From: Octopus vulgaris | Lineage: Eukaryota | Length of the DNA: 64,000 nt | Direction: 5' to 3' | NCBI GenBank assembly: GCA_951406725.2 | Contig: OX597815.1 | Coordinates: 154,380,001-154,444,000 of the forward strand | Shown here: positions 9,104-58,490 of the stretch, piece by piece | How the letters are laid out: each line of letters begins with the position of its first letter | Numbering within the stretch: the first letter of the stretch is position 1 | Program-made: the position numbers and the translations under genes | The notes under the pieces: generated by a model | The model's input: only the letters and a program-made list of their open reading frames with translations | What the model was told of the DNA's origin: nothing | Database searches by the model: none

Positions 9104-11055
9104 TGTGCCAAAGGCTCAAAGGCGCAATATGAATAACTTTGTTAACAAGGTATACGAGCCCTGATCAATAAGTATCCGTACTGTTGCCGTAGTAACGACA
9201 CTAAAGCGCGCAGAGTAAAGCTGCTTTCCAAAGATTGACCTTGACCTCTGCTGTGTGTGTGCACTAAGTTTTAACGTTCTACCTTACTTTCGCTGTTTAC
9301 AGCAGTGCTTCGAAGTAACGTGTGTTACGTGTTATCGACGCATTGACCAAGATGGATAAAGTTCTCATGGCGATACCTGCTCAGAGGCCTACGCAAAGTT
9401 GCAGAATGTGTATGCATGTACAGGAGTGTATGAGCCACACATAAGTGTACGAGTGGTTCAGACGTTTCCAAGAAGGCCGAAAAATGTCGATACTGATGAA
9501 CGCTCTGGGAGACCCGCAACCAGCAAATCGGAGAAAAACATCGCAGATGTGCGAGCAGCTGTGAGGGTAAATCGTCGAATCACCTTCCGTGAGTTATCAG
9601 TCTGTGCAGATTAGTTATGGTTCACTTCAGTCCATTATCAGTGACGATTTGGGTATGAGATGCGTGTCTCCTAAGTTTGTGACAAAACTGCTTTCAGCTA
9701 ACTAAAAAGACACTCAGATTTAAGTTGCACAAAAACTTCTTGATTCTGTCGAGTATGATGAAAAGTTTTTGAAAACTATGCGTAGGCCTTTGAGCAGGTA
9801 TCGTTAATCTGTTAGCAAAATTTAATGCAGATTCTCTGCTCAAGTTTCCTTGTCATGATCAATGCAACGATCATAGGCTGCACACGTTCCTTCCAAACAT
9901 TACTGTAAACAGCGAAATTGAGATAACACGTTAGAACTTAGTGCGCATGCACAGCAGAGTCTAAGGTCTATCTGTGCCAATCAGCGTCAGTGTCCGTGCT
10001 TCTGCCCCGTTACTATAGTAACAGTCCGGATACTTATGGATCAGATCACGTATCTTGCTTGCTTTAAAATAGCACTTGGAGAACAGAACAAAACATAGGC
10101 TCCCTACTATGTTGAAACTTTGTGATCATGGTCTGAATGAATGGATTCGAAGCTCAACTTTGGTGTGCCGATGGTTTGGAGAGAAGTAACAAACCATGTG
10201 GGTAACTGCTAATTCTCCCTTGTTAAAGTAAAAGGGTTCAACACGAAAACCAAGCGACACTTCCAGTACCCAGACATCCCCTCTGTCCCTTAACCGGTTG
10301 CACTCTCCGGGGAAATACCTGTGCTTGTATTTATTGAGCTGCAACAGACTAATGGTGAAGCTCTCAGTTCACTTACTACTGATGAAGATAATCAGTTTAT
10401 GCTATGTGATAAGGGTTGTGATAATTTCTCTCTGTTTAGTCAACCTGAATTGAATGATGTGGTCAGTGATTTGTATTTGCCAGAGGCTGCAAGAGGAAAG
10501 ACTACTGAAACCTGGCACTTATGTCTCATTTTATCATAACTGAGCAGCAGAACTATGGAAGTTCATATATTCACATGGTCAGCTTGTTTATTGTAATGAT
10601 GTTGAAGGGCTTCTTCTCAATTTGGGACTGTTGGCATATGATTCACTAAGCGGAGACTTTTTTATTGACAGCTCTAAAAGCAACTTGCAACATGTTTTAC
10701 TTCACAACAGGAATTTGTATGGCTCAATCCCAATGGGACACGCACTAAAAAGAAAAGCCGACAGCTATCGAGAGATTGTGGAGGAGCTGCTCTTGAGTTT
10801 GCAAGCATGTGGATGTAGAATTGGCATTTAATTGCACTCCTAACACATTCACTTAGGTTTGTGTCTAGAGAAGCTGCGTGATGTTAGAGGAGAACAAGTC
10901 AAAAGCTTTCATCAAGATCTAAAAGTAATGGAAGAATGCTACCAAAGCCGATGGGACTGAAACATGATGGCAGATTACTACAGGAGCTCGATGAGGGGCA
11001 TTCCAGAAGCTGTGTACTAAAGATCTTAAAAACAGAGGAAGTTCTTACAGTAATA
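9104..11055 (+). mobile_element. Decayed Chapaev3-like (CMC superfamily) transposase, interrupted by a mariner derivative
   Basis: QRRNMNNFVNKV|YLACFKIALGEQNKT*AP (cf. AYFG.KLGDQDK.WAPH), FGVPMVWREVTNHVGNC*F, FSQPELNDVVSDL, FFIDSSKSNLQHVLLHNRN, EQVKSFHQDLKVMEECYQSRWD..MMADY. Family name from recalled motifs. Confidence 0.75.
9155..10050 (+). mobile_element. Non-autonomous mariner derivative (896 bp) with very long inverted repeats and TA target duplication
   Basis: TA|CGAGCCCTGATCAATAAGTATCCG ... CGGATACTTATGGATCAGATCACG|TA. Arms stay complementary for ~240 bp. Centre encodes mariner HTH remnants (VYEWFRRFQEG, DERSGRPATS, ISYGSLQSIISDDLGMR). Confidence 0.9.
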
Positions 11056-13043: not shown

Positions 13044-13589
13044 ATGCCCTGATAGAGTATCAGACAGTGGCTCTCATGACTTCTAATCTTAACTGATTGG
13101 AAGTGTTATCATGTACACTATTTTGTCTTGGTATAAAAGATGGGCTACAGCAAATATTCAGCTCAATACCACAGATTTGCTTGTCAGTTGTTTCACCTTA
13201 ACCAGTTGACTATGTCTCTTAGTGGCTGACGATATGTGCATCTCTGATCATGAGCAGAAGTAGTGGGGGAGCATCATAGCCGTGTGTTGAAAGGAATTCT
13301 TAGAGTTTTGGATAATTCACCTTTGGGAAAATGGCTGGTTTGTTCAATATCCTTAAACACTCTTTATTCAGGGATCTTTTGAGCGGAATGAGCTACTCGA
13401 GCAGAAGAAAATTCTAACTGGGTCTCACCTGCGCTGTTTATCTTGATATCAGATCACCATGTCGCGCACATATGGTTGTGATGCATGTGCCTAGTTTACC
13501 CTTATCAGACGGATAGTCATGATGGGTATATTGGGCTTCGTATATTTTACCCCAGTGTCACTTTGATGGCATGCACTGCTCTCTCACTC
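13044..13589 (+). mobile_element. ~550-bp non-coding interspersed element associated with (TAA)n, copy 1
   Basis: Reverse complement of the copies at 50878-52728; no credible ORF; 3' end CTCTCACTC runs directly into AATAAT. Confidence 0.9.
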
Positions 13590-14769: not shown

Positions 14770-14956
14770 TTGATTTCATATTTTGACACAAGGCCTGCAC
14801 TTTCTGGAGATAGGGTAAGTCGATTACATCAACCCCATTGTTCAACTGATACTTATTTTATAGACCTCGGAAGGATGAAAGGCAAAGTTAATCTCAGCGG
14901 AATTTGAACTCAAAATGGAATTTGAACTCGCGGCCTTTTCTTCCAGCTCGCCACCT
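14770..14956 (-). mobile_element. tRNA-derived SINE family B, internally deleted
   Basis: Minus strand GGTGGCGAGCTGG...GAGTTCAAATTCCGCTGAG (B box)...TTTGCCTTTCATCCTTCCGAGGTC; homologous to the copies at 27452 and 53029. Confidence 0.8.
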
Positions 14957-16812: not shown

Positions 16813-18072
16813 CGTGGGTTTTATGAAAAGTTTTGAGCCTAACCTAGAAACGGGGCTGCTGGGGAGCTGAAACAATTGTTTCTGGTAATTACAATCTTTT
16901 CAGTGTATTCTTGCTCATTTTCATGATAATTTCTTTTTGTTGATTTTTGAATAAACAAGTCTTGAGGTTGCAAGGAAAATGGGGAAAACTGAGTATAGTG
17001 CTATCATAAAGTACCTTCATTTGAAAGGCATGACTCCATCAGAAATCTATGAAGATATGGTGAGAACCTTGATATGCAACCGTCAAACGCTGGGTAAATA
17101 AATCCCAGCGTGGCAGGGAGAGTGTGGAAGATGATCTCAGACCAGGGAGACCTCTAACTACAACCACCGAGGATAACATTGACGTTGCTCTTGGTATGAT
17201 AGTGCTACATCTTCGAATATCATGTCGTCAGATAGCCGAGAGACTGGGCATCTCAACTGAAAGAGCAGGCATCATTGTGACAAAAGAACTTAGGTTCTCA
17301 AAGGTTTCTGCAAGGTGGGTCCCTCTCCTCTTGACTCCTAAACAGAAACCCAGTATGTGCACTTTGTCTACGAGCAACCTGGATCTGTTTGAAGCCGTTG
17401 AAGAGAATTTTCTTGTTCGTTTCATTACTATGGACGAAAGTTGGTTTCATCACTACCAGCCTGAAACCAAAGAATAATCAATGCACTGGAAACACACATC
17501 TTCTCCTACCTCAAAGAAGGCCAGTGTCATTCCTTCAGCTGGCAAGGTCATGGCGTCAGATTTTTGGGGGATTCTCAACTTATGTTGCTGATCGATTACC
17601 TTGAAAAGGGTCACACCGTCACAGGGCTGTATTATTCTCAGCTACTGAAACGCCTTCGAGAAGCAATCAAAGAATAAAGGCCGGAAATGCTCACCAGAAT
17701 AGTCCTTTTTTCTCACAACAATGCTCCCGCCCACACCTCAATGGTTGCCATGGCAACAATTCAGGATTGTGGATACAAACTTATTCCCCGTCCACCTTAT
17801 TCGCCAAACGTAGTCCCCTCTTACTTTCATCTGTTCCCCAAAATGAAAGAAAGCCCTGGCTGGTCGCCATTTTGCCAATAACAATGACGTCATAGACGCT
17901 GTAGGAAGTTTCTTGGAATCTCAAACAAAAGAGTTCCTCTACGCCGGGATAATGGTGCTTTAACACCGCTAGAGAAAGCGTTCAGCCACCAAAGTGGATT
18001 TGTTGAAAATAAACCGTCAGAAGTCTTGTACTATGTTTTTTTTTTGAGGCTCAAGACTTTTCTACACCCCTG
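16813..18072 (+). mobile_element. Full-length decayed mariner transposon
   Basis: TA|CGTGGGTTTTATGAAAAGTTTTGAGCCT ... AGGCTCAAGACTTTTCTACACCCCTG|TA imperfect terminal inverted repeats; ~1.26 kb. Confidence 0.92.
16979..18013 (+). pseudogene. Mariner transposase pseudogene
   Basis: MGKTEYSAIIKYLHLKG..., EDDLRPGRP, SARWVPLLLT, FITMDESWFHHYQPETK, PSAGKVMAS, HNNAPAH, PPYSPNVVPSYFHLF; multiple stops and frameshifts, second and third catalytic Asp lost. Confidence 0.92.
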
Positions 18073-23200: not shown

Positions 23201-23427
23201 TTTATTATGAGTATCTATAGCTTTTACCAAACCTAAATTTCTTTGTCACTCTCTTTCTCTTCCTCGCTTTTCCTTTCTCTCTCTCTCTCTCAGTCTGTCT
23301 TTGCCACCACCCTACTATGACTCTCACCCCAAAATGAGCAGTAGTAGGAGTGAGAGAGCATGGTCGAAGTGTGACACATTGATACACAGAAATTAGTTTT
23401 CGCATTTATTATATTATACATATTCTT

Positions 23428-23820
23428 TTATTTCATTTATTTATTTCAGTTATTTGACTGCGGCTACGCCGGAGCACTACCTTTAGAGGTGTTAGTCGAG
23501 TAAATCGACCCCAAGATTTTTTCTAATCTTAGTACTTAATCTATCAGTCTCTTTTGCTGAAACACTAAGTTACGGGGACGTAAATACACCAACATAGGCT
23601 GTCAAGCGATAATGGGAACATACACAGACAGAATGACACACACCCACACACATAGATACTATGGACTTCTTTCAATTTCCGTCTACCGTGTCCATTCACA
23701 AAGCTTTGGTCGGCCCGAGGCTGCAGCACAAGAAACTTGCCCACGTTTCCGCTCAGTGGAACTGAACCAAGAACCATGTGGTTGTGAAGGAAGCTTCTTA
23801 CCACACAGCCCCGCCTGCGC
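23428..23820 (-). mobile_element. tRNA-derived SINE family A, uninterrupted copy
   Basis: Minus strand GCGCAGGCGGGGCTGTGTGGTAAGAAGCTTCCTTCACAACCACATGGTTCTTGGTTCAGTTCC (A/B boxes), internal (GT)n, A-rich tail; homologous to 57640-58068. Resembles octopus OK/OR-type SINEs, family not verified. Confidence 0.88.
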
Positions 23821-26800
23821 ATATATGTGTGTGTTTGTGTGTGTGTGTGTGTGAATATATATGCGAGTCTGTGTGTGGGATAAAGGAAAGTTGTTCATTT
23901 TGGTATTAGTGGTAAAATTCAAATGTTGTACGCCTTTTGTTTGCTTGACAATTGCAGCTAACATAATTACCAACTTGAATTCCATAGAAGTGATATTGTT
24001 ATATGTGACATGCGTGTCAAGAACTGAGACGAAAGTTTAAATGTTCATATTTATAGCATATTAATATTGATTTCATTACACGGTTAACTCTATTGATTAA
24101 TTATTCGTACGAAATATTCAGAATTACTCAACTTCATCTGATGTATATTGCTATATCATAGAATTAACCTTCAATAACGCAGATTATTTTAAAAAATAGA
24201 ACTTATGTATCAATGTTTAAGGAATATAATCCATATTTTGAAAGGTAAATTTGATATAGAATTGTTGTTATCTCCAATAGATAGTTACAATTGTACAATG
24301 AAACTCTTTGAATAATCTACAAATACAGTTTGGTAGGTGCTACAGAGCAAAAATCTCACGGTAGGCTGTGAGATTTTTAGAATTAAAATCAATGCTCTTC
24401 GCCGTTGTTTTTAATGCAACTTGTGAAAATTTATGAAGGATAGGTATCTTTACAAATTACTGTTATTAACCCAAAGAAATAAGTTCATATTAGACCTAGC
24501 TGATGGGAATAACGAACAGAAAAACAACGGAGATTCATGCATTTCTATATCATAGATATATTTCTATTCTTTATGAAAACATATATAAATACTGCAGTTT
24601 TGGCGCAATATTATTTCAATAATATATGTGATGCATGATGTTACTAATATGCAGCCAGTATAATTAGGATAAAAGAAAATAATCTCATTTTGTCCATTAT
24701 ATATATTTTTAGATTATCTGGTTTTTCTTATACTAATTTCCAACAAATATACTGTCGTGACTTACAGCGGTTAAAACGAAATATATCATGTCATGATTTT
24801 TATCTGATAACATAAAAATCATTAAAATTTTACCAAGGCCCAAGAGACCATAATAACTGAACTCTATTTTTGTAATGATAACCGCTTAAGATAGGAATTT
24901 CACTTTTCGAACTTGCCAATTTATCTCCTGATATTTTCAGAATTTCAAGTAGTTTCAGACAGCTACCTAGAATGAGCAATGGCGGTTAATGTATAGAACA
25001 TGTCCACATACACTAAAAATTGTAATAGAGGTTAATAACCAACCTATTCGAACGCAACATTTCTACTCCATCACATAGTTCAAACATTTTCTGAATAATC
25101 CACTCTGTGTTTGTAAATTATTTTATCATTTGCTTTGTTCTTACAATTTGCATTTCAGAACTATTTTCACAATTATAAGAGTAAAATAAACATATAGTTT
25201 TCAACTAGCAATAACCACGCCTCGGATAACTCTCATTGGCTTTGCAAGTATAGGTGTATGGTTAGACAATTCCTTTGCAACCATGGACTTTACCCTGCTC
25301 TATAGTCCTCTGCTCTTAGGCTCGTTTTAATCAATGCTTTATACGTGGTGTTTCGGATACAGAAGATGTTCAGAACTGCACTCTAAAAACGTAGTAAGAA
25401 GTAAACTTTTATCAGAAAACTTGATTGATGTGGAGCCGGTGCTGATGGTTTTGAGGTACTGTTTGTTTACAAAATAACTGATGAACTTTTGTTCATTTAA
25501 CTGGGGGTAAAAGTTTCAGTATGCATGTTAAAATAACTGTTTACTTTAATGTGGAATTAACTGCAAATGATATTCCTATACCAAATACTTCGGAAAGAAA
25601 AGACATGTCACAGAAACACCTACTTATATGAATAGAAATTAACATTCATTGTAACTGAACTGATTCGAACATATCTTCAGATCTTCTAGATCTGTATTCT
25701 TTAGTATCGTTAAAATCAGTCTGGTTTATAGTCCTCGCGGCTGTTTTAACAGGAATCCCTTTGTACGGAAGACACAAATCCAGCCCCGAAATAATTGAAA
25801 TAGGGTCTCCCTATTGCAGAAAAATTATACTAGATGATGGAGGCTTCTAATTATTAGTTAGACAAACCTGGATATTTCTCCACTGCTCATTTCTGACCAA
25901 GTCATTTAAATCAACAATTTTTTGATCTGCAATTCAATAAAGTCCTTTAACAACATTTGAAAATATGTCCACCATGGATCTGGTTGAAATATGTCAACGC
26001 ATTTTCATCAAGGATAATCCATCAAAACCATTATTTCTTTCCTCTTTCCTACTCTTGGACATACCCCAGCATTCAGTAATTTTCTGTTTACTTGAAATAT
26101 GCCTAGCTAGTATAATTCAGTCAAGCAAACGCTGCGCCTAAAGTACATTGTCCAAGAAACGCAAGGCTTACAATTTTTACCACGCTTTTGCCAAAATATT
26201 GCTGTTTCGTTGGCTTCCGTCTGAATAATCTCATGGAACTACACGCAGTGAGAATGAGGAAAGAATAGTGTTCTTGTTCAAAGACAATTTTGACAGGATC
26301 TAAAGTAAACTACACGCTTTGCAACCTGAAACCTTATATCTACGGCTTTCTGTATAAGAATGAATTACAAGTTCGTTTTAGAACACCCGAAAAGTCAGTG
26401 GTAATGTATACAATACTGGTATATATCATCGTCATTATAAGGACACAAAGCATACATAATATAAAGGCACTAAATCTTAAAAGTGAGGGAACAAAAAGTG
26501 ACCATACTCGATGGGGAATGGAGATGGTGCATGTAAGCGTATGTTTGTATCTATGCACTTGCCTTCGATTATATTTTATGGTATAAACTAGGTTGTTGAT
26601 TTGCTTTTCTTCACTCTGTAAACTTCACATTGATTGGACAGAGTGTGATGGAATAATTAGCATTAGACTGAAGTTATAGTAATGGCCGTTTTAATAATGT
26701 AAATCCATTAGCAGCGATGCACCAATCTAATAGCAGTTTATTTCCTGAAACCTATGTAAGATTTAAAGTGTAGATTTTTGGTGGGTAAACTAGGTTTATA

Positions 26801-27451
26801 AATTTTGATACCTGGCCCAGCGAAATACATAGCATTTATGTCACTTAAGCTCTACACAAGGATATAAGCGTTTCGTAAAACACCATTTCCCTCATTACCT
26901 CACTACAATGTCCACGAAATGTACGGCTTTGAAAGAAAAATAAACTTCAGGTTGTTATCAGCCATCCTAACTGAAGTAAATCGATTTTCAATCTTAATAT
27001 CCAGTAGAAATGGTTTCAATTACATGCTTTTTTGTCAACGTTAAACCTATGTGAAATCACATTTTGTTGATATTTCTTTTCAGATTTCATATGAACTTCC
27101 GAGTATTCCATTTTAGAAGAGATCTGAATTTCCTGTTCAATTTTCTATAAAGTATCAACGTTTTAAAAAGAAAAGCATATTGAAAATTCATTTCTCCTCA
27201 TCTACTAAATAGAATTAATTTTTTCTAAAAGATAAATGGTACATACTTTCAAATGGAGGAAGAAAATCTAAAAAATTCATATAACAATGTATTGAAATTA
27301 GTTTTTGGCATTATGCGTGTTCATGTATACTGACATCCTAAATCCATTTTTAAATGATGTTATTAACTCCTTCCCACCACCACTAATATTTTTGAATCTA
27401 TATCACCTCTCTTGGGATCCAGTCAATATGTACGTATGCACAGCTTAATTC

Positions 27452-27650
27452 GCTGAACTGGTAGAATCGTTAGCACTCCAGGGAAACGTTTTTACCAGGT
27501 TCGTCTGTCAATACAATCTGAGTTCAAATTCCGCCAAGGTCGGCTTTGCCCTTCTTCCTTTCGGGGTCGATAAAATTAGTACCAGTTGAATACTGGCGAC
27601 AATGTAATCGACTTACCCTCTCTACAGACATTATTGAGACAGAATCTGAA
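27452..27650 (+). mobile_element. tRNA-derived SINE family B
   Basis: GAACTGGTAGAATCGTTAGCAC...GAGTTCAAATTCCGCCAAGGTCGGCTTTGCCCTTCTTCCTTTCGGGGTCGATAAAATTAGTACCAG. Confidence 0.85.
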
Positions 27651-33469: not shown

Positions 33470-35608
33470 ATTAATAGCACCACCTAATAGGATTATTCGA
33501 ATCCTGTTTAAGTCAAGTTTTGTTTATGGTCCATTTAAGTAGTGAGTTCTTGTTGGGTGAGTTGTATCCAATTATGGGTGGCTTATCTGGTATTCTTTGA
33601 AGGAATCTATCCAGACTCCGTTTAAAGTTGATGGGATCCTTTTCCTCTTTGATCTCCCTTGGGACAATGTTAAATAGGGCAGGGCCTGTTGAGGAAAAGA
33701 AATTATGTTGCAGTGTACATGTATGCTGTGATCTTGATTGGGCAGGGGACGTATGGCCCGTGGTCCCAGTCTTGGATGACCCTTGAAGCTAATGTTCAGG
33801 TCGTTTGGGCAAAGTTGGCGGTATATTCTCCACATTGTACAAATGATGTACCGCTCACGGCGACGCTGGAGAGAGTAAAGTTTCAAGGCTTTAAGGCGAT
33901 CCCAATAATCGAGAGCAGCCATGCCTTCAATTCGTTTAGTGAGTGGCCTCTGGGGTGACTCAAACCTGGAGATGTTTTGTCTTGTATGGGGAGACCACAG
34001 TGGGCAGCAATATTCGAGGTGTGGCCGTACAAAGGAGGAGAAAAGTGGTATGATGACACCTTGTTCTCTGGACCGGAAAGTTCTTAAGATCCAGGAACTC
34101 ATCCTACGAGCTGTATCGACCTTATTTTTGATGTGTGCACTCCAACTGAGATCGTCAACAATTACACCCAGGTCTCTGATATTGTTAGAGGCTGTGAGCG
34201 GTTCCCCTGAAGGAAGAGAGTATGGCTGTTTTAGTGAGGAATTTCTTCCAAAATGCATCAGCTCAAATTTTCCCTCATTCAGTTGCATTTTGTTTCTGTC
34301 TGCCCATTGACTCACAGCATATAGATCAGACTGAAGTTGAGTTTGGTCTGCTTCTTCATTGACGATTTGCTGGAGCTTAGTGTCATCAGCAAATATTTTC
34401 ACTTTGCAGTAATGTACGACACTGGAAAGGTCGTTTATGTAAATTATGAAGAGTAGCGGACTCAAGACAGTCCCCTGGGGGACACCGCTGGTGACTTTTG
34501 CTGGGCTTGAGTGGACTCCATCGACTACAACATGTTGTGTTCTATTCGCCAGGAAATACTTAATCCAGTGTAGAACTTTTCCACGGATTCCAACATTTGC
34601 CAATTTTGAGAGTAGGATATTATGGTCTACCCTGTCGAACGCTTTACTGAAGTCAAGATATATGACGTCAGAGTTCGAACCTGTTCCCAAGGATTTGAGT
34701 ACATCTTCAATGTGGTGTAAGAGCTGTGTTAGACAGTCCCTGCAACAGCGAAAGCCATGCTGATTTGAATTTAGGAGTTTGTGGGCTTCCAGGAAGTCAG
34801 CTATCCTTGATCTTAACACTCTTTCAAACACTTTAATGATGTGGGAGTTGCGTGAGATTGGGCGATAGTTGAGTGCGAGGGATCTGTTTCCCTGTTTGAA
34901 AACCGGGATGACCGACTGGGATAGAAACTGTTTCGGTATATAACCTGCGTCTAACGAATTTCCCCAGAGGTTGGTCACAGGGACTGCAAATGGTGTCTAC
35001 ATTCCTTCAGGAGACTAGCGGGGAATCTATCAGGGCCTACAGCAGAGTAGTATTTGACCTCATTTATTGCTGCTATGATGTCAGTGGCAGTGAAGGTTAT
35101 GTCTGAGATTTTATGTTGGGAGTCAACTTCGTTCGCTTCTCTTACGTCAATATCAGTTGGAACACTAAAGACAGAGCAGTATTGTTTCTGCAGTATTTCT
35201 GCCATTTCTTTTGCATCGTGTTCGGGAATGACGTTATCATCAATCAATTGCCCAATGGGTGAGACAGTGGTTCTATGCTTATTTGCATAAGAATAGAAAA
35301 CTTTTGGGTTCTGTTTGATGTTTTTAATTACCCACTGTTCCTCCACTGCTCTTTGATTTTCAATGGAGGTTTTCATGTGGGTCTGCAGATGAAGTTTTTC
35401 CAGCTCTAGCCTTTTCATTGTTGTTGAATGTGGATGTTGTGTGTGGGAATATTTTAATTGGTTGATTTTTTTATTGAGTCTTTTGATACGCCTGATGAGT
35501 GTTATTTTCTTTTTAGGGAGCCGGTTTCTGTTTGTGTTAGTAGATTTCGTGGGAGCGTGTTTAGAGCATGTATAGGTGACAATGTTTTCAAAGTGCTGCC
35601 ATGCGACA
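33470..35608 (-). mobile_element. 5'-truncated CR1-group LINE between (TA)n tracts
   Basis: ORF2 remains at 33572-35600, with a short 3' UTR ending ...ATTAGGTGGTGCTATTAA before (TA)n. Confidence 0.9.
33572..35600 (-). pseudogene. LINE ORF2 reverse transcriptase; RT domain uninterrupted, frameshifts near 34980 and 33740, endonuclease missing
   Basis: NYRPIS, QHGFR, YLDFSKAFD, GVPQGTVL, FADDTK, RDLGV, RPHLEYCCPLWSP, SLQRRRERY; upstream NPKVFYSY and AVGPD. Confidence 0.93.
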
Positions 35609-35622
35609 CTTATATATATATA

Positions 35623-35860
35623 TTCCATTCTGCTTAAGTAATGGAACTGCAGATACGATATCCTTGCATATATCACTTCTGTTTTCATTCTGCCACCTCA
35701 CACTATATTTTATATCTTCTCTATAACTATATCCTTAACCATTTTCTCTGTGATGAAGGGATATATAAAATATGGTGGAAACAGTTGTTAGACCTTCTCT
35801 TTATAAGCGTTGGGAAATCTTTCACACCCTTCGATTTTTGTTATCTCACTCTGTTAAGTT
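35623..35860 (+). mobile_element. PLE terminal-repeat-like unit with degenerate hammerhead (35745-35794), same family as 39583-39968
   Basis: Aligns by eye to 39703-39968; contains TGATGA-AGGGATAT ATAAA ATATGGTG-GAAA-CAGTTG-TT-AGAC; (TA)n on both sides. Confidence 0.7.
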
Positions 35861-39196: not shown

Positions 39197-39968
39197 ATTA
39201 ATGGAATGAGATAAAAATACAAGGCTGTGGAAGATTTCAGAACATTTATAAATAGGTCTTACAGCTGTTTCCGGCATATTTTACGTATCCCTTCATTGGA
39301 CATGGTGAGATGGTGTCAGAAAATGGCTAAGCAATAGTTATCCTAGATAAGATATGAAATAGAGAGTGAATGGAGGACTGAAAATAGACGTGATATATGC
39401 AGGGATATTGTATCTTAAGTTTCATTATTTAGGCAGAATCGTATACATATCAGATTCCTGTATCTTGTGATTAAGTGCAAATAGTATTTAAAATTGGTCA
39501 TTCCAAGTATGGAATTTGTAAACTTTGTTATTGAATCGTTTTTTTTTTTTTTTTTTGAAGTGACTTAAAAATTGGGAATGTGTTGTAAGTCACTCAAAAA
39601 ACCCTCGATTCAATAACAAAGTTTACAAACTCTGTGTTTGGAATGACCAATTTTAGATACTATTGGCACTTAATCACAAGGTACAGGAATGTCATATGTA
39701 TACCATTCTGTCTAAATAATGGAACTGAAGATACAATATCCCTGTAAATCTCACGTATATTTCCTTCCTCCACTTCAGTCTCTATTTCATATCTTATCTA
39801 GAATAACTATTGCTTAACCATTCTCTCACACCGTCTCCGACGAAGGGATATTTAAAATATCCCAGAAACAGCTATAAGATATATAAATATCCCAGAAACA
39901 GCTATAAGATTTATAAATGTTCTGAAATCTTTCACAGCATTGGATTTTTTTTATCTCATTCTGTTAAT
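39197..39968. mobile_element. 770-bp fold-back made of two inverted PLE terminal-repeat-like units, each with a degenerate hammerhead
   Basis: Arms 39197-39570 and 39583-39968 are complementary throughout but diverged. Hammerheads at 39256-39302 (-) and 39833-39880 (+); 30-bp tandem duplication at ~39855-39914. Confidence 0.85.
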
Positions 39969-44790: not shown

Positions 44791-45875
44791 TTAAGTTGTG
44801 AGTGAGATTTAGTGCTATTTCTAGCGTGTCAATTAATGACATCTACGCACTTTGATTGGTTCGAATTTAGCCTGTAAATATATAGAGTTGTTACACTGAC
44901 CAAAATGTGAAACGAATAGCTATCCCTATACATTTGTAGAGAGTCGGCAACTGTTTGTAGCTCAGTCATATTCTGGCCCTGCAAATGGGAGGCTATGGCC
45001 TGAAGGCGAAGGACTTTTCGTGACTTTCACTAGCCCATTCACTCAATATTCGGATATTTTTATTCACCTAGTATTATGATTATAGAAAGACATGCATATT
45101 CACACATAATTACACAAATATATACAAATTCACACACACATACACACACGTACATACACACACGTACACAGACACGCATACACGCACGCACTTCATTTAT
45201 TATATATATACACACAAATATATAGTTGTAAGCGCCACACTGACATGTATGAGATTATGCTCACAGACACGCACATAGAGGCATACATACATACATAGAT
45301 ATAATTATGCCCAAACACACACATACACGCACAGACTCGCGCCCACACACGTGTACAACAATAAAAAGAATACGATGAGAGAGGAACGGGAAGGAAAAGA
45401 AAAGAAAAGCAATAAAAACGAAATGAGTAGAGTTAATTATTTATAGGAATTGATACGTAATTATTATGTTGAGCCCCGCAGGAAAAAAGAAAGATTAGTG
45501 TGTGTGTAGTTCGAAAGATAAACAATAGATTGTATTTGAAAGAGGGGTTGTGTAAGTTATGCCAGCTGACTCTTATGCTAATGACAATTAAAAATAAACG
45601 GTGATTAAAAACTGCGATGGGACACTCGGGAGTTAAACATGAATCAAACGTATTACTAATGAAATTTTATATTTAAAACTATAAAACAATAGAGATTTGG
45701 GAGAAGGTATAAAATGTTATTTATGTACATTCAGAAGATAAACAAATACATGAGTTAGTAAATAATTGTGTTATGTGTGTGGTTTAATATATGTTTTCGG
45801 AAGTTAGAATTGATAAGAAAATATGCGCGTTGAGGCAAAATACTGCTGTGTGTCAATTCCCTTAATAATTGAATA

Positions 45876-45910
45876 GGTACAGGCGTAGCTGTGGTAAGAA
45901 GCTTGCTTCT
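45876..45910 (+). mobile_element. 5' head of a split SINE family A copy
   Basis: GGTACAGGCGTAGCTGTGGTAAGAAGCTTGCTTC matches the first ~35 nt of the SINE A copy ending at 23820; the rest resumes at 49884. Confidence 0.8.
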
Positions 45911-47896
45911 GCGCAGGCGTTTGTTGTCAATTGTTCATAGCATTGAATGAAGTCGTCTCACTGGCTTGCAGCGGACGGAAATTGATTCTACTGTAAGGTA
46001 AGACTTTTGTTTTGGGGGTCCAGTGGGGGTTTGTTGTTTGTGATAATTATTTTTGTACAAGCAAGAGGTCTTCACTGGACTCTGGGCGCTGGTCGGCCTG
46101 TAGTAAAGTATATAGTTTTTTTTCACTTAATTGTGAGAATTATTGTTTGGGGGAATATTCCGCCTCCAAACGTGAATAGTGTTGTTCTCAATTAATATTT
46201 GAGAATTGTTCGCTTGGAAAGTTGGTTCATGCTGGTGAATAATTTTGTGGAATTATACAACAGTGAGAAGCTGTGTTCCAATTTCAAACTGAAGGCCGAG
46301 GAGTACCGTGTGGCCAAAGGATTTTTTGAATTGCCGCTCTCTCTTCTTCTATCTATCATTTTAAAATTCTTTGAACTGTATATTTTTTTTCTTCTTCCTT
46401 TAGGTTGGGATTTCCGTTTGGATTTTCTCACTAATTGTTTGAATTTTGCGAACTGTTTTTGAACTGTTTAATTTATCATGGCAAAGGACAAAGAAAAAAC
46501 TGTGGAGTGGGAGATAATGCCAACCAAGCAGTAGACGGTGGTGTTGAGGACTTACTCCAAGTCCCTCGACACCATCGCCGCCTGCGAGAAAAATTTGATA
46601 GAAAAAGAGTTGGCAGAATATATGACAACTATTAAGTACATCTCTAGGGGGCCAAATACGCAACCGTGTGATTGCTATTTGACACTCCCGAAGAGGCTCG
46701 CAAATTCGCGAGCCAGCCCGTGGAGAGCACAGAAATTTTGTTTCTTCCCACTTATTTTGGGAGGAAGTTGACGAAGGCTTGGCTCTGCGGTTTGCCACCC
46801 GGAACTGAACCCGAGTGGATAGAAGATACTATCCACCGGGGACTGGGTGGCAGCAGTACCATGCTCCTCAACGTAAATATCTTGCCTGAGGTTGATGTGG
46901 GGGTCAAAAGCTGTTTTGACCCTGTAGACCCAATCAGCCGAAAATCTGGTATTCCCACATTTTTTAAGAATTGCCGGGTTCAAGTATCCGGTGATGCATG
47001 AGGACGCCCCCATCAAGTGTCACTTGTGCCTGGAACCGGGTCATATAAATAAGTACTGCCCTCGGGACCAAAATATGGTCCTGGAGCAGTTAATAAGGAT
47101 ACCGCTCCCTGATCCCTTATTGGAGGGAGAGAAGAAGGAAGTTGAGGAGGTGGAAACATCCTCGAAAAAGACAAAAGAAAGGTGGGCAACAATTGTTGCT
47201 CACCGAAGGATCCGAAGGCTGAGGGAGGATCTTCTGGATAAAGTAACTCAACCCTCCCGTGGCTCAAGGGGAAAAAGAAAAACGGTTTGTGACACACTGC
47301 CGGCGTGTCTCGAAGCACCATTGGTGGGAGTGGTTCCACCGAAGGTGGAAACTGTAGACCTCTCCCATGTTGTGGAGGAGTAATTTGGGGGTCATCTTCC
47401 ATAAAGGAGGGGCACTAGAAAGCTTCATTAAGAAGCTTAGAAAGAAAGGCCGAAGAGAGGGCATTCTGTCCTGCGCGGGGACCCTGAGTGGTCTTCGCAG
47501 GTGGCTGCGGAGGTCATATAGGAAACCGATCTGCACAGGATAATGAACTCCTTCCGAGAGGATACCTTTAGATTTGTGTTAAAACGGCTTGACTTGGCAC
47601 CGTCCAAGTGTTTGACTAGGGTGAGGAGCATGGTCAGGCAGGAAAGCATGTAACTGATAATATAAGTTTATTGTATTTTATTGTATTTTTATTGAATTGT
47701 TTAAGAGGTTTATCGCGTCATAAATGTTTTTTTTTAACTGTGTAAGGTGTTTATTGCTTCGAGTATGAAACTTAAAAAGAACAATGCTTGTTGCCCTCAT
47801 TTTTCACCATTTCATTTGTCATTCATATCATTATGTGTGTGTTCAGCCCGTAGCTGCCTTTCTGAGTAAGGCCTTTATGGCCAGTCTAATGAATAA
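45911..47896 (+). mobile_element. ORF1-only L1/Tx1-like non-LTR element, copy 1 (~2.0 kb)
   Basis: ~570-nt 5' UTR, one decayed ORF with a CCHC knuckle, 3' UTR ending GGCC-TTTAT-GGCC...AATAAAA; flanked by AAGAAGCTT(G/A)CTTC direct repeats. Confidence 0.8.
46478..47653 (+). pseudogene. gag-like ORF1 (RRM-like region plus zinc knuckle), frameshifted
   Basis: MAKDKEKTVEWEIMP...TVVLRTYSKSL...LFDTPEEA...AWLCGLPPGTEPEWI...YPVMHEDAPIKCHLCLEPGHINKYCP (CX2CX4HX4C at 47018-47059), basic/acidic linker, C-terminal segment shared with copy 2. Confidence 0.8.
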
Positions 47897-47910
47897 AAGA
47901 AGCTTACTTC

Positions 47911-49883
47911 CCTCAATACAGTGTAGACGTGTCCTTCTTCGCTGCTGGTGTCACGTCTTTGTATACCAACGTCGTGGATTATCGAAGCACAGCTACTAGG
48001 TAAGACATTTGTGTTTGGGGGATTCAGTGGGGGTTTGTTGCTCGTGTTTATTTATTTTTGTCGAACAAGAAATCTCCACTGAGTTTTACGCATTTGTCTG
48101 CCTGTGGTTGTGTTTAAAGTCCCACTTAGCGGTGAGAAGTGTTTTTTGGGGGCGTATCCCTCCGAAAATGGTGTTATTTTTTGTGACTGTTTTGTGTAAT
48201 TGAAGGAGGATTACAAAGTTGGCCAGGAGTACAAGGACGGCCAGAAGAATTTGCTGTGTTTTTTTAATTGTTTCTTGTCTGCTTCCATTTTGTCTTTTTT
48301 TTAACTTTGAACTGTTGCTTTTGTAGACTTTAAAAAAAAAACGTGGCAAAGAAGATAAATAACACTGCGTTGGAGTGGGAGATTGTCCCGCCCAAACAGT
48401 GGATGAAAGATTTTGAAGAGAGGACGGTGGTGCTGCGAACGTACTCCAAGTCGCTCAACGCCATCCACCTCTATCAAAAGAGTGAAATTGAGAAAGAATT
48501 GACAGAATATTTGCCAACTATTAAATTCATCTCCAGAGTGGTCAAATATGCAACGGTGTGGCTGCTGTTTGACACCCCTTAGTAGGCTCGCATTTTTGTG
48601 AGTCAGCACCTGGAGGGCAATAAAATTTTGTTTCTTCTCACATATTGTGGGAGGAAGTTGACAAGAGCTTGGGTTTGTGGCTGCCACCCGGGATAAAACC
48701 CGAGTGGATAGAGGAAACTATCCGCCGGTGTCTGGGTGGCAGCGGAGCCAAGCTCATTAATCTGAAAGTTTTTCCTGCGGCTGATTGGGTTGGGTCAAAA
48801 GCTGTTTTGACCCTGTGGACCCAATCAGCCAATCCATATTTTTTTTATATGGTCGGGTGCAGTTACCCTGTGATTCTTGAGGGTCTCCCCACACCCCAGG
48901 TGTCATCGGTGCCTGGAGCCTGGCCATATAAAGAAAAACTGTCCCCAGGAAAAAGTAAGGTCCTGGAGCAGTTGGTTGAGACCTCTGTAGAAGGGGAAAT
49001 GAAGGCGGCTGAGGAGGCGGAGGACTCCTCAAAGAAGGGCCGCAAGAGGAAGAAGGTGACCAACAATGGGTGCTCACTGAAGGATCCTAGGGATGAGGGA
49101 GAGAACGCGAATCTCCCGGTCACGGAGATGACGCACCCTCCCTCGGGTGAGAAGAAAAAAGAGGAAGAGGAAGGGAAACGGGACATTGCCGGCAGTCGGT
49201 GACATAGTACCGGAATGTCCCAGACCTCGTCGGCGGGGGTTGTGGTACTGGCCGGGGAAGAGATACTGTCGGTGGGAATTGTACCACCGACAGTAGAAGT
49301 GACTATCTCGTCCTCGAAGGAAGACGAATTATTGGTCTTCTTCTACATAGGCGGAGAGTTGGAGAAGGTGTTGGAAAAGCACCATAAGGGAATACCTTTA
49401 GCCTGCACATGGGATCCCGAATGGCCTCCGCAGATAGCTGCGGCGGTCATAACGTTGCTCGTGATGCGTACACTGTAGGTACTCAACGAGTAATATTGCT
49501 TGTGACCGGGCGACACCAACACGGCACCAGTCTTGTGCTTGAATGAGGCGAGGGTGATGGCGGAGGATGGGGTCACAAGCGATGTTAGGTAGGAATATGG
49601 ATAAGAGTTTGAACAGCCTCAGTGTTATTGAAAGTTCCTAGTTTGGAAAAAAGGTAAGAGGCTTCGTGCCTCATTTTTGAATTGTTAACAATGTAAGAGG
49701 TTTGTTGCCTCATGAATAAAATAAGAGATCAATGTTCACGGGACAAGAACGATCGGCGGGCGTCGCTTTTCCCCCACCTATTAATCATCATTTTCATTTT
49801 TCATTTCATATAACATTATGTCTGTGTCCAGCCCGCAGCTTCCTATCTCTATGTAAGGCCTGTATGGCCAATATAATGAAATA
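47911..49883 (+). mobile_element. ORF1-only L1/Tx1-like non-LTR element, copy 2 (~2.0 kb, clearly diverged from copy 1)
   Basis: Colinear with copy 1 from 5' UTR to 3' end GGCC-TGTAT-GGCC...AATAAA; followed by AAGAAGCTTACTCTCC. Confidence 0.8.
48343..49592 (+). pseudogene. gag-like ORF1, frameshifted
   Basis: EWEIVPPKQW...TVVLRTYSKSL...WLLFDTP; LPPGIKPEWIEETI; YPVILEG.P.RCHRCLEPGHIKKNCP (knuckle at 48901-48942, in a frame not listed in the track). Confidence 0.8.
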
Positions 49884-50247
49884 AAGAAGCTTACTCTCCA
49901 AAGTTCTGTGTTCATTGAGCAATTTGGAGCCGAACAAAGCTATTTGTGTGAATTTGGTAGACAGAAACTGGAAGAAGCTCGTCGTATATGTGTGTGTGTG
50001 TGTGTGTGTGCGTGTGTGTGCGTGCACGTCTTTGTTCTTGTATTCGACCTCACCACCAACTGACAACCAATGTTGGCGTGTTTACGTTCCCGTAACATAG
50101 CGGTTCGGCCGAAGAAACTGATAGAATAAGTTCCAGGCTTAACAAAAATACGTTCAAGGGTCGATACATTCGACTAAAATTTCTTCAAGGCAGTGCCCCA
50201 GCATTGCTGCAGTCAAGTGACTGTAACAAGTAAAAGATAAAGGATAC
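49884..50247 (+). mobile_element. Remainder of the split SINE family A copy
   Basis: GTTCTGTGTTCA..TTGAGCAA..GCCGAACAAAGC..TTTGGTAGACAGAAACTGGAAGAAGCTCGTCG, (GT)n, TTTACGTTCCCGTAAC, GGGTCGAT, CCAGCATTGCTGCAGTCAAGTGACTG: same order as the copies at 23428 and 57640. Confidence 0.85.
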
Positions 50248-50794
50248 AAAATCTTGAAAGTTTTACTACTCTGTGCATTGACAAACGAAATTCTCAACCT
50301 GACGTTGGCCTGAAAGAAAGCCACAAGATTATTCATCATCTTCCAATCAACAAATTTGGCCACCATTTTGAATGCTATATCTCCACTATTCGTCAACTCT
50401 TTTATTAAATAATAAGAAAAAAGAAGGAAAAACATCAGAGCAGCAATCATGATTAACTTTCGGAAACGTATTTCAGTGTTCAGAAGTGTCAAAGCATTTG
50501 ATTAAGCTATTCGCATCGATTGTTAGCTGTCAGAACGCTATTTCCTTCATAAGTTCCATGTTACCTGAAATTTGTGAACATTACTCCTGACGTATGCTTT
50601 TCGTTTTCAGTCTTTTTTATAGTTCAATTTTCTGTCACCGGCTTTCTTCTCTATGCTGCATGTGAATATTTGTTTTTTTCTGTTTTTTTTACTTCACGTT
50701 TTTCTGAGTTTGTCACATATTAAACCCTTATCCACTTGTTATTATCATTATTGTTATTACTATCATTGTTATGATTGTTCATGTATGATTATTA

Positions 50795-52930
<2,136 letters not shown>

Positions 52931-52952
52931 CATTATCATTATCATTATCATA

Positions 52953-53021
<69 letters not shown>

Positions 53022-53028
53022 GCTATTA

Positions 53029-53225
53029 GGTCGGTGAGCTGGCAGAATCGTTACCACTCCACGAGAAATACTTAGCGATATTTCGTCCGTTCCAGTTGAA
53101 ATTCCGCCGATGTTGACTTTGCCTTTCATCCTTTCGGGATCGATAAAATTAGTACTAGTTGAACACTGGTAAACGACCTAACTCCTTCCCCCGAAATTGC
53201 TGTCCTTCTGCCAAAATTTGAAATT
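53029..53225 (+). mobile_element. tRNA-derived SINE family B
   Basis: GGTCGGTGAGCTGGCAGAATCGTTA...GTTGAAATTCCGCCGATGTTGACTTTGCCTTTCATCCTTTCGGGATCGATAAAATTAGTAC. Confidence 0.85.
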
Positions 53226-55884: not shown

Positions 55885-57560
55885 GAAATTATTGTATACA
55901 GTACTCAGGTGCACCACAACTTGTCAAAAGTGCGTATAAAGCATATGCGGTAATGTACGAATGACTGGAAAGTGAACAGTGTATGAGCCGGATACATGCT
56001 TGCGTGTGCATGGAAGGGAGAAAATCAGGTGCAGTGTTGGCGAATCTCAGGAAGCATGGAGGTTTTGAAGGATGCAGTACTCCGACAACTAACAACTGAT
56101 GCTGGCAGTTTGCTCCACACCTCAGCAACTCTTAGCAGAAAAAATGTTTCCGAAATTCATGGTAGCTGTGCTGTTTTCTGACATTATAAACATGTCCACG
56201 GGTGTTAGACAGGTGGAGTTTGAAAAGGTACTCAGAGTTATTGTTTGTAGGATGGTAAATAATTTTATGGGTGCCTGTCAAGTCAGCAGCCAGACGTCGG
56301 AGTTTCAATGCATCCACGCCCAGGGAGGCAAGGCGTTCAGAATATGGCAAATGCCTGATGGAGGGTATTCTCTTGGTTGCACGTCTCTGAACAGCTTCCA
56401 GACGATTAATATCCTGGACAAGATAGAGATTCCAGACCGGTGATGCAAATTCCGGGTCGCACCATAGATATAACAGCCGCAGATAGATAGCCGGAGACCG
56501 GCTCACAAAGGACTTGGTGAGTGATGCCAAAACACCCTCAGTCTTCTTTGCAATTTTAGCAATGTATTTTGTCCAACACAAATCGTTGTCGACAATAATG
56601 TCCAGGTCACGTTCACAAGAAGACGTTTTGAGATTAGTGTTGTGGAGGGAGTAAGTAGACGCTGGGTTTTCCCTCCCAAAATGCATGGTGGTACATTTGT
56701 CCACAGCCAGCTTCAGTTGCTAGTCCATGATCCACTCCTGCATTGTGTCCAGGTCTGATTGCAATAAAGATCTATAGTGTACAGGATTTATCTTCTTTAT
56801 TTCGAGGTACAACTTGATGCCATCTGCATACTTCAGCACTGTGGCATTCTTTCAGTTGGCATCTATGTCATTAACATATGCAACAAATAAAAGGGGGCCA
56901 AGAACAGATGTCATCTCATAGGGTGAAGAGTGCTGTCCTAGAACTGTGACAACCTCTTTTCGGCCGGTAATGAAGGACTTCAACCAGTTATAGAGATCAT
57001 CTCTTAGGCCCATTGCAGAGAGTTTCACCATAAGTCTTTTGTGTGGCACAGAATTAAAAGCATTAGTAAAGTCCAGGTAAACAACATCCACCCAAGTTCC
57101 GCGATCAGTGATTCGGGTAATGTCCTCAAGAAACTCGATGAGTTGATTACAGCAGCTGGAGTTAGGATAAAATCCAAATTGTGACGGCTGGATGAGGATG
57201 TGAGACTTCCAGAAGTTCCAGAGGGTTTATCTGACACAGGATTCCATCAATTTGGTGATGCAGCTAGACGTGCCATGTGCGGTCACCTTTTTTGAACAGA
57301 GGGATAACACTGGCAGTTTTCCACTGCTCTGGAGTAACACCATTGTCAAGACAGAATTGAAAGAATAGTGAAAGTTGGTTTAGAAGAAAGTACCCACCGC
57401 GTTTGAGAAGTAGGTATGTAACACCATCGAGACCAGGAGAGGAATAGTTACGTTTATTCTTAAGGTGTCGTTATAGCATTGCTGGTGTAAATTTCATAGT
57501 AGTTATAGAGTCCCGTGTCAGAGGTGATGGAGATGGACAACTGTCACACCTAGGTTTGTC
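55885..57560 (-). mobile_element. Decayed 5'-truncated CR1-group LINE
   Basis: WKTASVIPLFKKG, DVVYLDFTNAFNSVPH, SVLGPLLFVAYVND, KYAD, ERDLDIIVD, LEAVQRRATKRI, TRGH. Confidence 0.9.
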
Positions 57561-57639: not shown

Positions 57640-57857
57640 TACTCTTTACTCTTTCACTCTTCTGCTTGTTTCAGTCATTTGACTGTGTCCATGTTGGAGC
57701 ACCGCCTTTAGTCGAGCAAATCGACCCAGGACTTATTCTTTGTAAGCCTAGTACTTATTGTATCGGTGTCTTCTGCCGAACCGCTAAGTTACGGGAGGTA
57801 AACGCACCAGCATCGGTTGTCAAGCTATGTTGGAGGGACAAATACATATACACACAT

Positions 57858-57905
<48 letters not shown>

Positions 57906-58068
57906 GCATACGTCTGGTTTCTGTTAGTTTCCGTCTACCAAATCCACTCACAAGACTTTGGTCGGCCCGTGGCTGTAGTAGAAGCCACTTGCCCAAGGTG
58001 CCATGCGGTGGGACTGAAGCCGGAACCATGTGGTTGGTAAGAAAGGTACTTACCACACCAGCCACACC
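57640..58068 (-). mobile_element. tRNA-derived SINE family A, uninterrupted copy
   Basis: Minus strand GTGGCTGGTGTGGTAAGTACCTTTCTTACCAACCACATGGTTCCGGCTTCAGTCCC..., (GT)n, tail of AGAGTAA-like repeats. Confidence 0.88.
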
Positions 58069-58490
58069 TATTTTATTTTTCTTAGTATTTTATAAGCGAA
58101 GACTTGAGTGTGTTGTTGAGGAATTCAGTTACCAGTTAGGTTGTTTTGAGTTTTGAGCCCATTACGTGGTACGTTTAGAAATTGTCATCCACCGTAGCCT
58201 CATATTGACGAAATTTGTATGAATGATATACAATGGAGAAATATCGTATTATGAAACGCACTCGATACTCATGTTTTTGGTGGTAGATATTATCTTACTC
58301 GGTTTAACACCACTTAATTATGGGTATAGACGTTTTTTATGAGATCCACTCTGTCACGAAGTAATCGCTCTCTTATAAGTTGCTTTCTCTCTTTATACAT
58401 GTCTGTGTGTGAGCCTGTGCATATGTGTGTATAAGAATATAGCTTCCAATGCATTGTTGCGTGGTCATTCTCACTGCTCGCCAATAATGT

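Follow-up and report, generated by a model that had tools for sequence, protein, structure and literature searches.

In a 64,000-nt stretch of the Octopus vulgaris genome (contig OX597815.1, positions 154,380,001 to 154,444,000; hereafter the window), a repeat resembling a short interspersed element (SINE) is broken at 45909/49884 by two colinear elements of ~2 kb, here called E1 and E2. Most likely, both are dead and represent two subfamilies of an octopus retroelement that is ~2 kb long, non-autonomous, and of the non-LTR type (i.e., without long terminal repeats), and that encodes only an RNA-binding ORF1 protein. With a probability of roughly 0.7, we read the family as target-primed: a helper long interspersed element (LINE) would nick the SINE-like head at GT|AAGAAG, prime on the A-rich 3' end of the element, and cut 14–16 nt further on, so that the target is both duplicated and regenerated.

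Two elements at one site of a SINE-like repeat

The window (64 kb) contains three copies of the SINE-like repeat, two uninterrupted and one split. The uninterrupted copies both lie on the minus strand, at 23421-23830 (our reference) and at 57656-58069 (with a diverged target motif), as delimited by repeat alignment. The split copy is on the plus strand. Its 5' head with an A-box-like motif occupies 45873-45895, and the match to the uninterrupted head covers 37 nt (45873-45909); its body resumes at 49884-50245 and comprises a (TG)n tract and a tail after three deletions near its start (nhmmer E 1e-38 for 49919-50240). An initial annotation had described a split SINE copy whose body resumes ~4 kb on, interrupted by two colinear ~2-kb elements, and both descriptions were borne out. 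The uninterrupted copy that it placed at 23428-23820 exists as well, but on the minus strand and with slightly wider bounds, and the second such copy had been missed.

The head of the split copy is 2 nt shorter than the intact heads, and contigs show two extra letters behind 45889. Likewise, the resumed body does not restart cleanly: against the copy at 58069, it lacks 6, 18, and 16 nt at three places clustered within its first ~60 nt (49884-49945).

By size, dispersion, and depth, the target is SINE-like. It is short (~400 nt), dispersed, and very high in copy, with three copies in 64 kb, and the contig depth summed over 49850-49985 is ~10,000 times that of the unique flank (a ratio of depths, not a copy number). 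Searching with consensus patterns and one mismatch allowed, we observed an A-box-like motif in both intact heads and a B-box-like motif in one of the two. The insertion site lies directly behind the A-box-like motif, between the two. As to the tRNA-derived head that had been proposed initially, ARAGORN found no tRNA in the 64-kb window and Rfam no tRNA match in either intact SINE head at E up to 10. The octopus SINEs OK, OR1, and OR2 were reportedly described by Ohshima and Okada in 1994. The published record names OR2 as a CORE SINE (PMC4758252), reports SINEs as expanded in octopuses (PMC8967140), and gives their share of the O. vulgaris assembly as 11.6% (PMC13282606).

The two elements are bracketed by three target-site repeats of 14–16 nt on the plus strand, in each of which AAGAAGCTT marks the start (45896, 47897, and 49884). 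The left repeat (45896-45909) is 14 nt long with G at its variable position, the middle one (47897-47912) is 16 nt long with A at that position, and the right one (49884-49901) is the start of the resumed SINE and includes the contig ends at 49892 discussed below. Over 14 nt, the pairs are identical at 13 (left–middle), 11 (left–right), and 12 (middle–right) positions. The initial annotation listed these three occurrences of the motif but did not mention a fourth plus-strand 9-mer at 47430, which we rejected as a target because it is interior to E1 and has no SINE context. With ~0.8 such 9-mers expected by chance in the window, the motif by itself is weak evidence; what counts is its placement at the element ends.

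E1 (45910-47896, plus strand) comprises 1,987 nt and E2 (47913-49883, plus strand) 1,971 nt. The two are homologous in six of seven segments, with 66–82% identity and none of 100 shuffles scoring as well, and share 72% identity over 708 nt of the open reading frame (ORF). They remain alignable on to ~47653 in E1 and ~49598 in E2. The exception is the leader of ~85 nt (45910-45995 in E1), where 48 of 100 shuffles matched the score and the two elements are non-homologous. The best-conserved part is the last 72 nt (59 of 72 identical), within 3' ends at 47825-47896 in E1, where an AATAA(A) run merges with the target, and at 49810-49883 in E2. These conserved ends fold no better than shuffled sequences (z -1.0 and -1.5). 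Neither element has terminal direct or inverted repeats, and no long poly(A) tail is left on either. The hallmarks of target-primed reverse transcription (TPRT) in E1 and E2 are the 14–16-nt repeats, the AATAA(A) ends, and the lack of long terminal repeats (LTRs) or terminal inverted repeats (TIRs). An LTR or TIR element was rejected for lack of terminal repeats.

Recurrence of the junction in public contigs

Part of the stretch is contained in 15 of 24 sequencing runs listed; no RNA data set was among those containing it, which has no bearing on expression. We compared four of them (X1, X2, X4, and X5, with three organism labels) by fitting their contigs to 45500-49985 at 80% likeness. The rows listed, which were not picked by count alone, comprise 24 loose ends and 15 joints; beyond them are 3,663 loose-end, 377 joint, and 284 between-letter rows. 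The unique left flank was present in all four runs. Summed depth over E1 and E2 was several to several hundred times the flank depth (again not a copy number), which indicates that the family is multicopy.

Among the 24 loose-end rows listed, two coincide with the 3' end of an element (49892 in each case), with 29 contigs in X1 and 30 in X4. These contigs continue as GCTTCCCAACCACATGGTTC, the continuation found in both intact SINE copies of the window. Their agreement (0.64 and 0.68) was similar to that of plain SINE-body rows (0.61–0.67 at 49929-49948) and higher than that of a random-flank row (0.47 at 45873). The 9 fitted letters together with a median of 21 loose letters make 30 SINE letters, which is the length expected if the contigs stopped on merging into common 31-letter SINE words, the assembly word length being k=31. 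Because lone SINE heads fit 45873-45909 better, the fitted part of these contigs is probably the element end. The 3' junction recurs in other contigs beyond the window locus.

On the 5' side, a single contig of X1 runs from the SINE head (45908) over 14 letters into position 49675, apparently a 5'-truncated copy at the same site. Among the 15 joints listed, three lead from the head to an element, namely to 45991, 48547 (all four runs), and 49691 (three runs). Another E2-type copy is represented by record 12 of X2, which differs in 35 of ~300 letters and fits from the opening base of the target repeat (47897) onward. The proposal that the family uses an abundant SINE as its site is sustained in so far as the 3' junction recurs at other loci (29 and 30 contigs); the selective safe-harbour role proposed along with it is conjectural.

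A probable ORF1-only family

In both elements, the ORF is preserved as a remnant with stops and frameshifts, none of them common to the two. It spans 46478-47220 in E1, to which the coding claim is confined, and 48343-49142 in E2 (both plus strand), with 68% and 71% amino acid identity, respectively, to an O. sinensis protein, LOC115225585 (P0001). This protein was the one relative found among 82 candidates for a piece of the E2 ORF, with 78% identity. The differences between E1 and E2 fall 36/31/66 on the three codon positions in 186 shared codons (p=0.0003), and dS is 0.66 and dN 0.21, giving a dN/dS of 0.31 (bootstrap 0.19–0.49). The 8 and 5 stops and frameshifts called do not coincide. These comparisons show purifying selection between the copies: E1 and E2 diverged as working genes and died separately.

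The search with P0001 yielded 47 proteins at E up to 0.001, and 7 of the 10 relatives looked up carry Octopus names. The structure model of P0001 has a pLDDT of 79, and all listed Foldseek matches are tandem-RRM proteins. A zf-CCHC domain was found in 9 of 30 relatives scanned (E<=0.01), and the Atlas puts P0001 near CCHC and ZCCHC3-like clusters, and Pfam gave no match to Transposase_22, the ORF1 family of mammalian-type L1, in P0001 or the 30 relatives. The E1/E2 ORF is a type I ORF1 of the order RRM-RRM-CCHC. Such an ORF1 is consistent with Tx1-clade elements and not confined to them (PMC5203782).

Pfam found no reverse transcriptase (RT) or endonuclease family in seven ORF pieces of E1 and E2, and no family at all in six frames of their 3' parts and two frames of their untranslated regions (UTRs). 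The inferred end of ORF1 is followed by only 243 and 285 nt. Lacking RT, endonuclease, LTRs, and TIRs, the elements are non-autonomous in a design like that of HAL1. The lack of ORF2 at the same place in both diverged copies points to an ORF1-only family, not to two separate deletions. Since the elements encode only an ORF1-type protein, their target specificity must come from an unseen helper.

Wider searches were negative within their scope. Metagenome scans with P0001 and P0051 gave 595 and 201 pattern matches, respectively, with no relative confirmed; the 3'-end motif had no match in viral and prokaryote contigs; and a C-terminal profile of five relatives had no match in the window, the Atlas offering no name for that part. 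Among the relatives, P0002-P0047 include many ORF1 proteins of the same type at 22–36% identity, and other ORF1-only families may exist. The P0005 cluster sits on Logan contigs of 1.85–1.93 kb, about the length of E1 and E2. The O. sinensis gene model XP_029639579.1 (P0015) has an ORF1 start fused to an integrase core domain and is probably a chimeric prediction.

Several features of the leaders were observed in addition. The first homologous position of E1 and E2 coincides with a donor-like AGGTAAG (45996-46002 and 47998-48004), ~85 nt from the 5' end, and both have an acceptor-like site before the ORF (46383-46403 in E1, 48318-48326 in E2). One would hardly expect a retroposed element to keep a 5'-UTR intron in its genomic copies. 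For P0001, a single sequence is filed under three RefSeq accessions, perhaps because of differing UTRs. The first 10 nt of E1 (45910-45919) are identical to the intact SINE start at 23820, perhaps by chance or as the trace of a template switch.

Insertion model and alternative explanations

For the mechanism, we infer TPRT. The APE-type endonuclease would come from a helper LINE, most likely of the Tx1/L1 group, and would nick the bottom strand of the SINE head at GT|AAGAAG, immediately after the A-box-like motif, and reverse transcription would be primed on the A-rich 3' end of the element. Cutting of the top strand 14–16 nt downstream would then duplicate the target and leave it reusable. 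A second subfamily could land on the regenerated site, resulting in the order head, target-site duplication (TSD), E1, TSD, E2, TSD, body. If E2 came second, the sequence upstream of its target was the tail of E1, so that the duplicated 14–16 nt downstream would be the main basis of recognition. Given the geometry of Pol III promoters, separation of the A-box-like and B-box-like motifs by kilobases should silence the split SINE copy.

The claim that E1 was inserted first is mildly supported. The contig consensus at the variable site is G, which suggests that the left repeat is ancestral. One G-to-A change in the downstream repeat of E1, copied by the insertion of E2, would then explain the pattern, whereas the reverse order needs a reversion. 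On the other hand, the right and middle repeats differ at 2 of 14 positions and the left and middle ones at 1 of 14, which counts mildly against E1 as the first insertion.

Further observations weigh against the target-primed reading as a whole. The 29 and 30 junction contigs stand without a denominator, as copies at other sites are uncounted; the 49892 row is listed for two of the four runs (X1 and X4, not X2 and X5); and contigs are not loci, since alleles and fragments count too. Between the two sides of the three head-to-element joints the sequence is unread, so that some of them might span a whole SINE lying upstream of an element, and the joint to 49691 possibly comes from the locus of the direct 49675 contig. 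No empty allele of the locus was found among the contig rows listed. As to the protein, the Foldseek TM-scores for P0001 are low (0.2–0.4), its Pfam zf-CCHC score of 14 bits is below the cut-off of 20.8, and ORF1s with RRM and CCHC also occur in other LINE groups (PMC5203782). Finally, no helper came to light: no RT in the window shares a 3' end with E1 and E2, weak alignment searches for an ORF1-ORF2 fusion among longer proteins gave 0 of 4,999 and 0 of 7,999 candidates, and neither these nor the metagenome scans turned up an ORF2 fused to ORF1 or next to it.

An unlikely alternative is hitchhiking, in which one ancestral SINE insertion was amplified as a composite and the common junction is due to descent. 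The best-counted evidence, the 3' junction, is equally expected from a composite, the SINE body at the window locus runs on to its tail, and the same worry was raised for SINEU-3 (PMC4494074). Yet two subfamilies with unrelated leaders each start directly behind the target repeat, and three repeats bracket two elements although there is only one head and one body. In addition, one contig joins a 5'-truncated copy to the SINE head, and the ORFs diverged under selection.

It is also rather improbable that a tRNA gene family (or tRNA-like head) is the evolved target and the numerous SINE is hit as a look-alike. Such an origin would fit a site between A-box-like and B-box-like motifs, and tRNA genes are indeed hit by Dada DNA transposons, at the A box and the anticodon (PMC8869645). 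However, the junction consensus is the SINE sequence of both intact window copies, and the SINE heads are not scored as tRNA by ARAGORN or Rfam.

We consider it very improbable that a loose L1-type preference for T/A-rich nick sites, together with high SINE density, produced a merely coincidental tandem. The nick hexamer is two mismatches from TT|AAAA, the assembly is rich in SINEs (11.6%; PMC13282606), and the untargeted share of copies is uncounted. But 11,703 hexamers in the window fit as well or better, compared to three SINE copies, so the TT|AAAA caveat of the initial annotation fails as an explanation. A coincidence would have a probability of ~1 in 4,000 for each insertion, but the site was used twice at this locus, and 29–30 contigs per run show the junction.

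That one inserted copy was duplicated locally, in tandem or as a segment, is hardly credible: although E1 and E2 are colinear and of similar length, we rejected it given their dN/dS of 0.31, the lack of a common lesion, the non-homologous leaders, and an E1–E2 distance similar to that from either to the O. sinensis relative, in agreement with the earlier judgment that the elements are too diverged for a recent local duplication.

The target-primed reading also has a stricter form, which we hold as tentative and somewhat short of even odds. The family would then be an octopus ORF1-only lineage with an unseen helper, confined strictly to the Pol III promoter region of a dominant SINE, with a target long kept and tandem stacking. 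It would comprise several subfamilies with exchanged leaders (dS ~0.66) and may have arisen after a switch from a tRNA-gene target.

Relation to known elements and significance

Targeting of other transposons by Tx1 elements is already known, and a SINE-head target would be a variation of it. Tx1 families prefer Mariner, Harbinger, and LTR elements and microsatellites, with no SINE among the targets given in the consulted part of the source, in which non-LTR elements count as target-specific when >20% of flanks are of one type (Kojima 2015, PMC4494074). The closest parallel is Tx1-Mar/SINEU-3 of crocodilians, which likewise uses one site of an abundant non-autonomous transposon with a TSD of ~16 nt. 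There, too, tandem copies (of SINEU-3, in a transposon target) sandwich the TSD, and non-autonomous passengers show the specificity of the helper. In contrast, the crocodilian target is a Mariner DNA transposon and the octopus target a SINE-like head, and the octopus passenger codes for ORF1, whereas SINEU-3 is a SINE headed by a small RNA. Tx1 of Xenopus in Tx1D and Keno in U2 snRNA genes share the sequence-specific insertion into a multicopy sequence, but are autonomous two-ORF elements with other targets (all PMC4494074).

HAL1 (half-L1) resembles E1 and E2 as a non-autonomous LINE derivative that encodes ORF1p only, but it derives from mammalian L1 with a type II ORF1, while the octopus elements combine an RRM+CCHC ORF1 with a target site (PMC5753468). 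Genes transcribed by Pol III also receive Dada insertions, close to the A box or the anticodon; however, Dada elements are DNA transposons in real tRNA, snRNA, and 5S genes, and the word "SINE" is absent from the main text of that report (PMC8869645). TRE3/TRE5 and Ty1/Ty3 similarly use Pol III loci as landing sites, but are guided by Pol III factors to positions next to tRNA genes, which stay intact, whereas the octopus elements lie inside the head at a fixed sequence (PMC5911963). Overall, the E1/E2 family appears to work like a Tx1-type target-specific passenger; having no RT by which to place its clade, it cannot be filed as Tx1.

A 2026 annotation of O. vulgaris describes 13 recently active L1-Tx1 families and, in the portion consulted, says nothing on targets (PMC13282606). 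In the literature covered, we found no retroelement that targets a SINE head. Repbase Reports, Dfam, and subscription papers, including Kojima and Fujiwara 2004, Bao and Jurka 2010, and Ohshima and Okada 1994, were outside this scope, and a note could exist there.

If the targeted share of copies is high, the SINE head would be a new target class for sequence-specific non-LTR retrotransposons, paired with an ORF1-only design. Two questions would then become testable: how target specificity moves to a young, lineage-specific repeat, and whether one retroelement limits another by breaking its promoter. Should the strict form hold, one retroelement would be specialized on the promoter of another and destroy it in each SINE copy hit. 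The endonuclease of the helper, once identified, would be a new sequence-specific APE. For genome annotation, nested arrays of this kind will be misannotated as split SINEs, unknown repeats, or genes; the O. sinensis models LOC115225585 and XP_029639579.1, which contain the ORF1, are cases in point.

Other features of the window

A U4 snRNA-like sequence at 25135-25263 (minus strand) scores 43.4 bits against a gathering score of 46 and is probably a pseudogene. Nested, MITE-like inverted repeats occupy 9152-10053, pairing 9152-9352 with 9853-10053 (75%) and 9371-9400 with 9774-9803 (93%). Two RVT_1 fragments and a homeodomain-like HTH fragment, located at 33575-34996 (minus), 56855-57226 (minus), and 17073-17474 (plus), have no DNA similarity to E1 or E2. 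Tandem units of ~500 nt, split by long trinucleotide tracts, extend over 50739-53046 and have an inverted relative at 13073-13589 (85–90%). Dispersed repeat families with two to three copies in the window were observed at 14773-14912, 27450-27628, and 53031-53224, and at 35616-35857 and 39197-39968.

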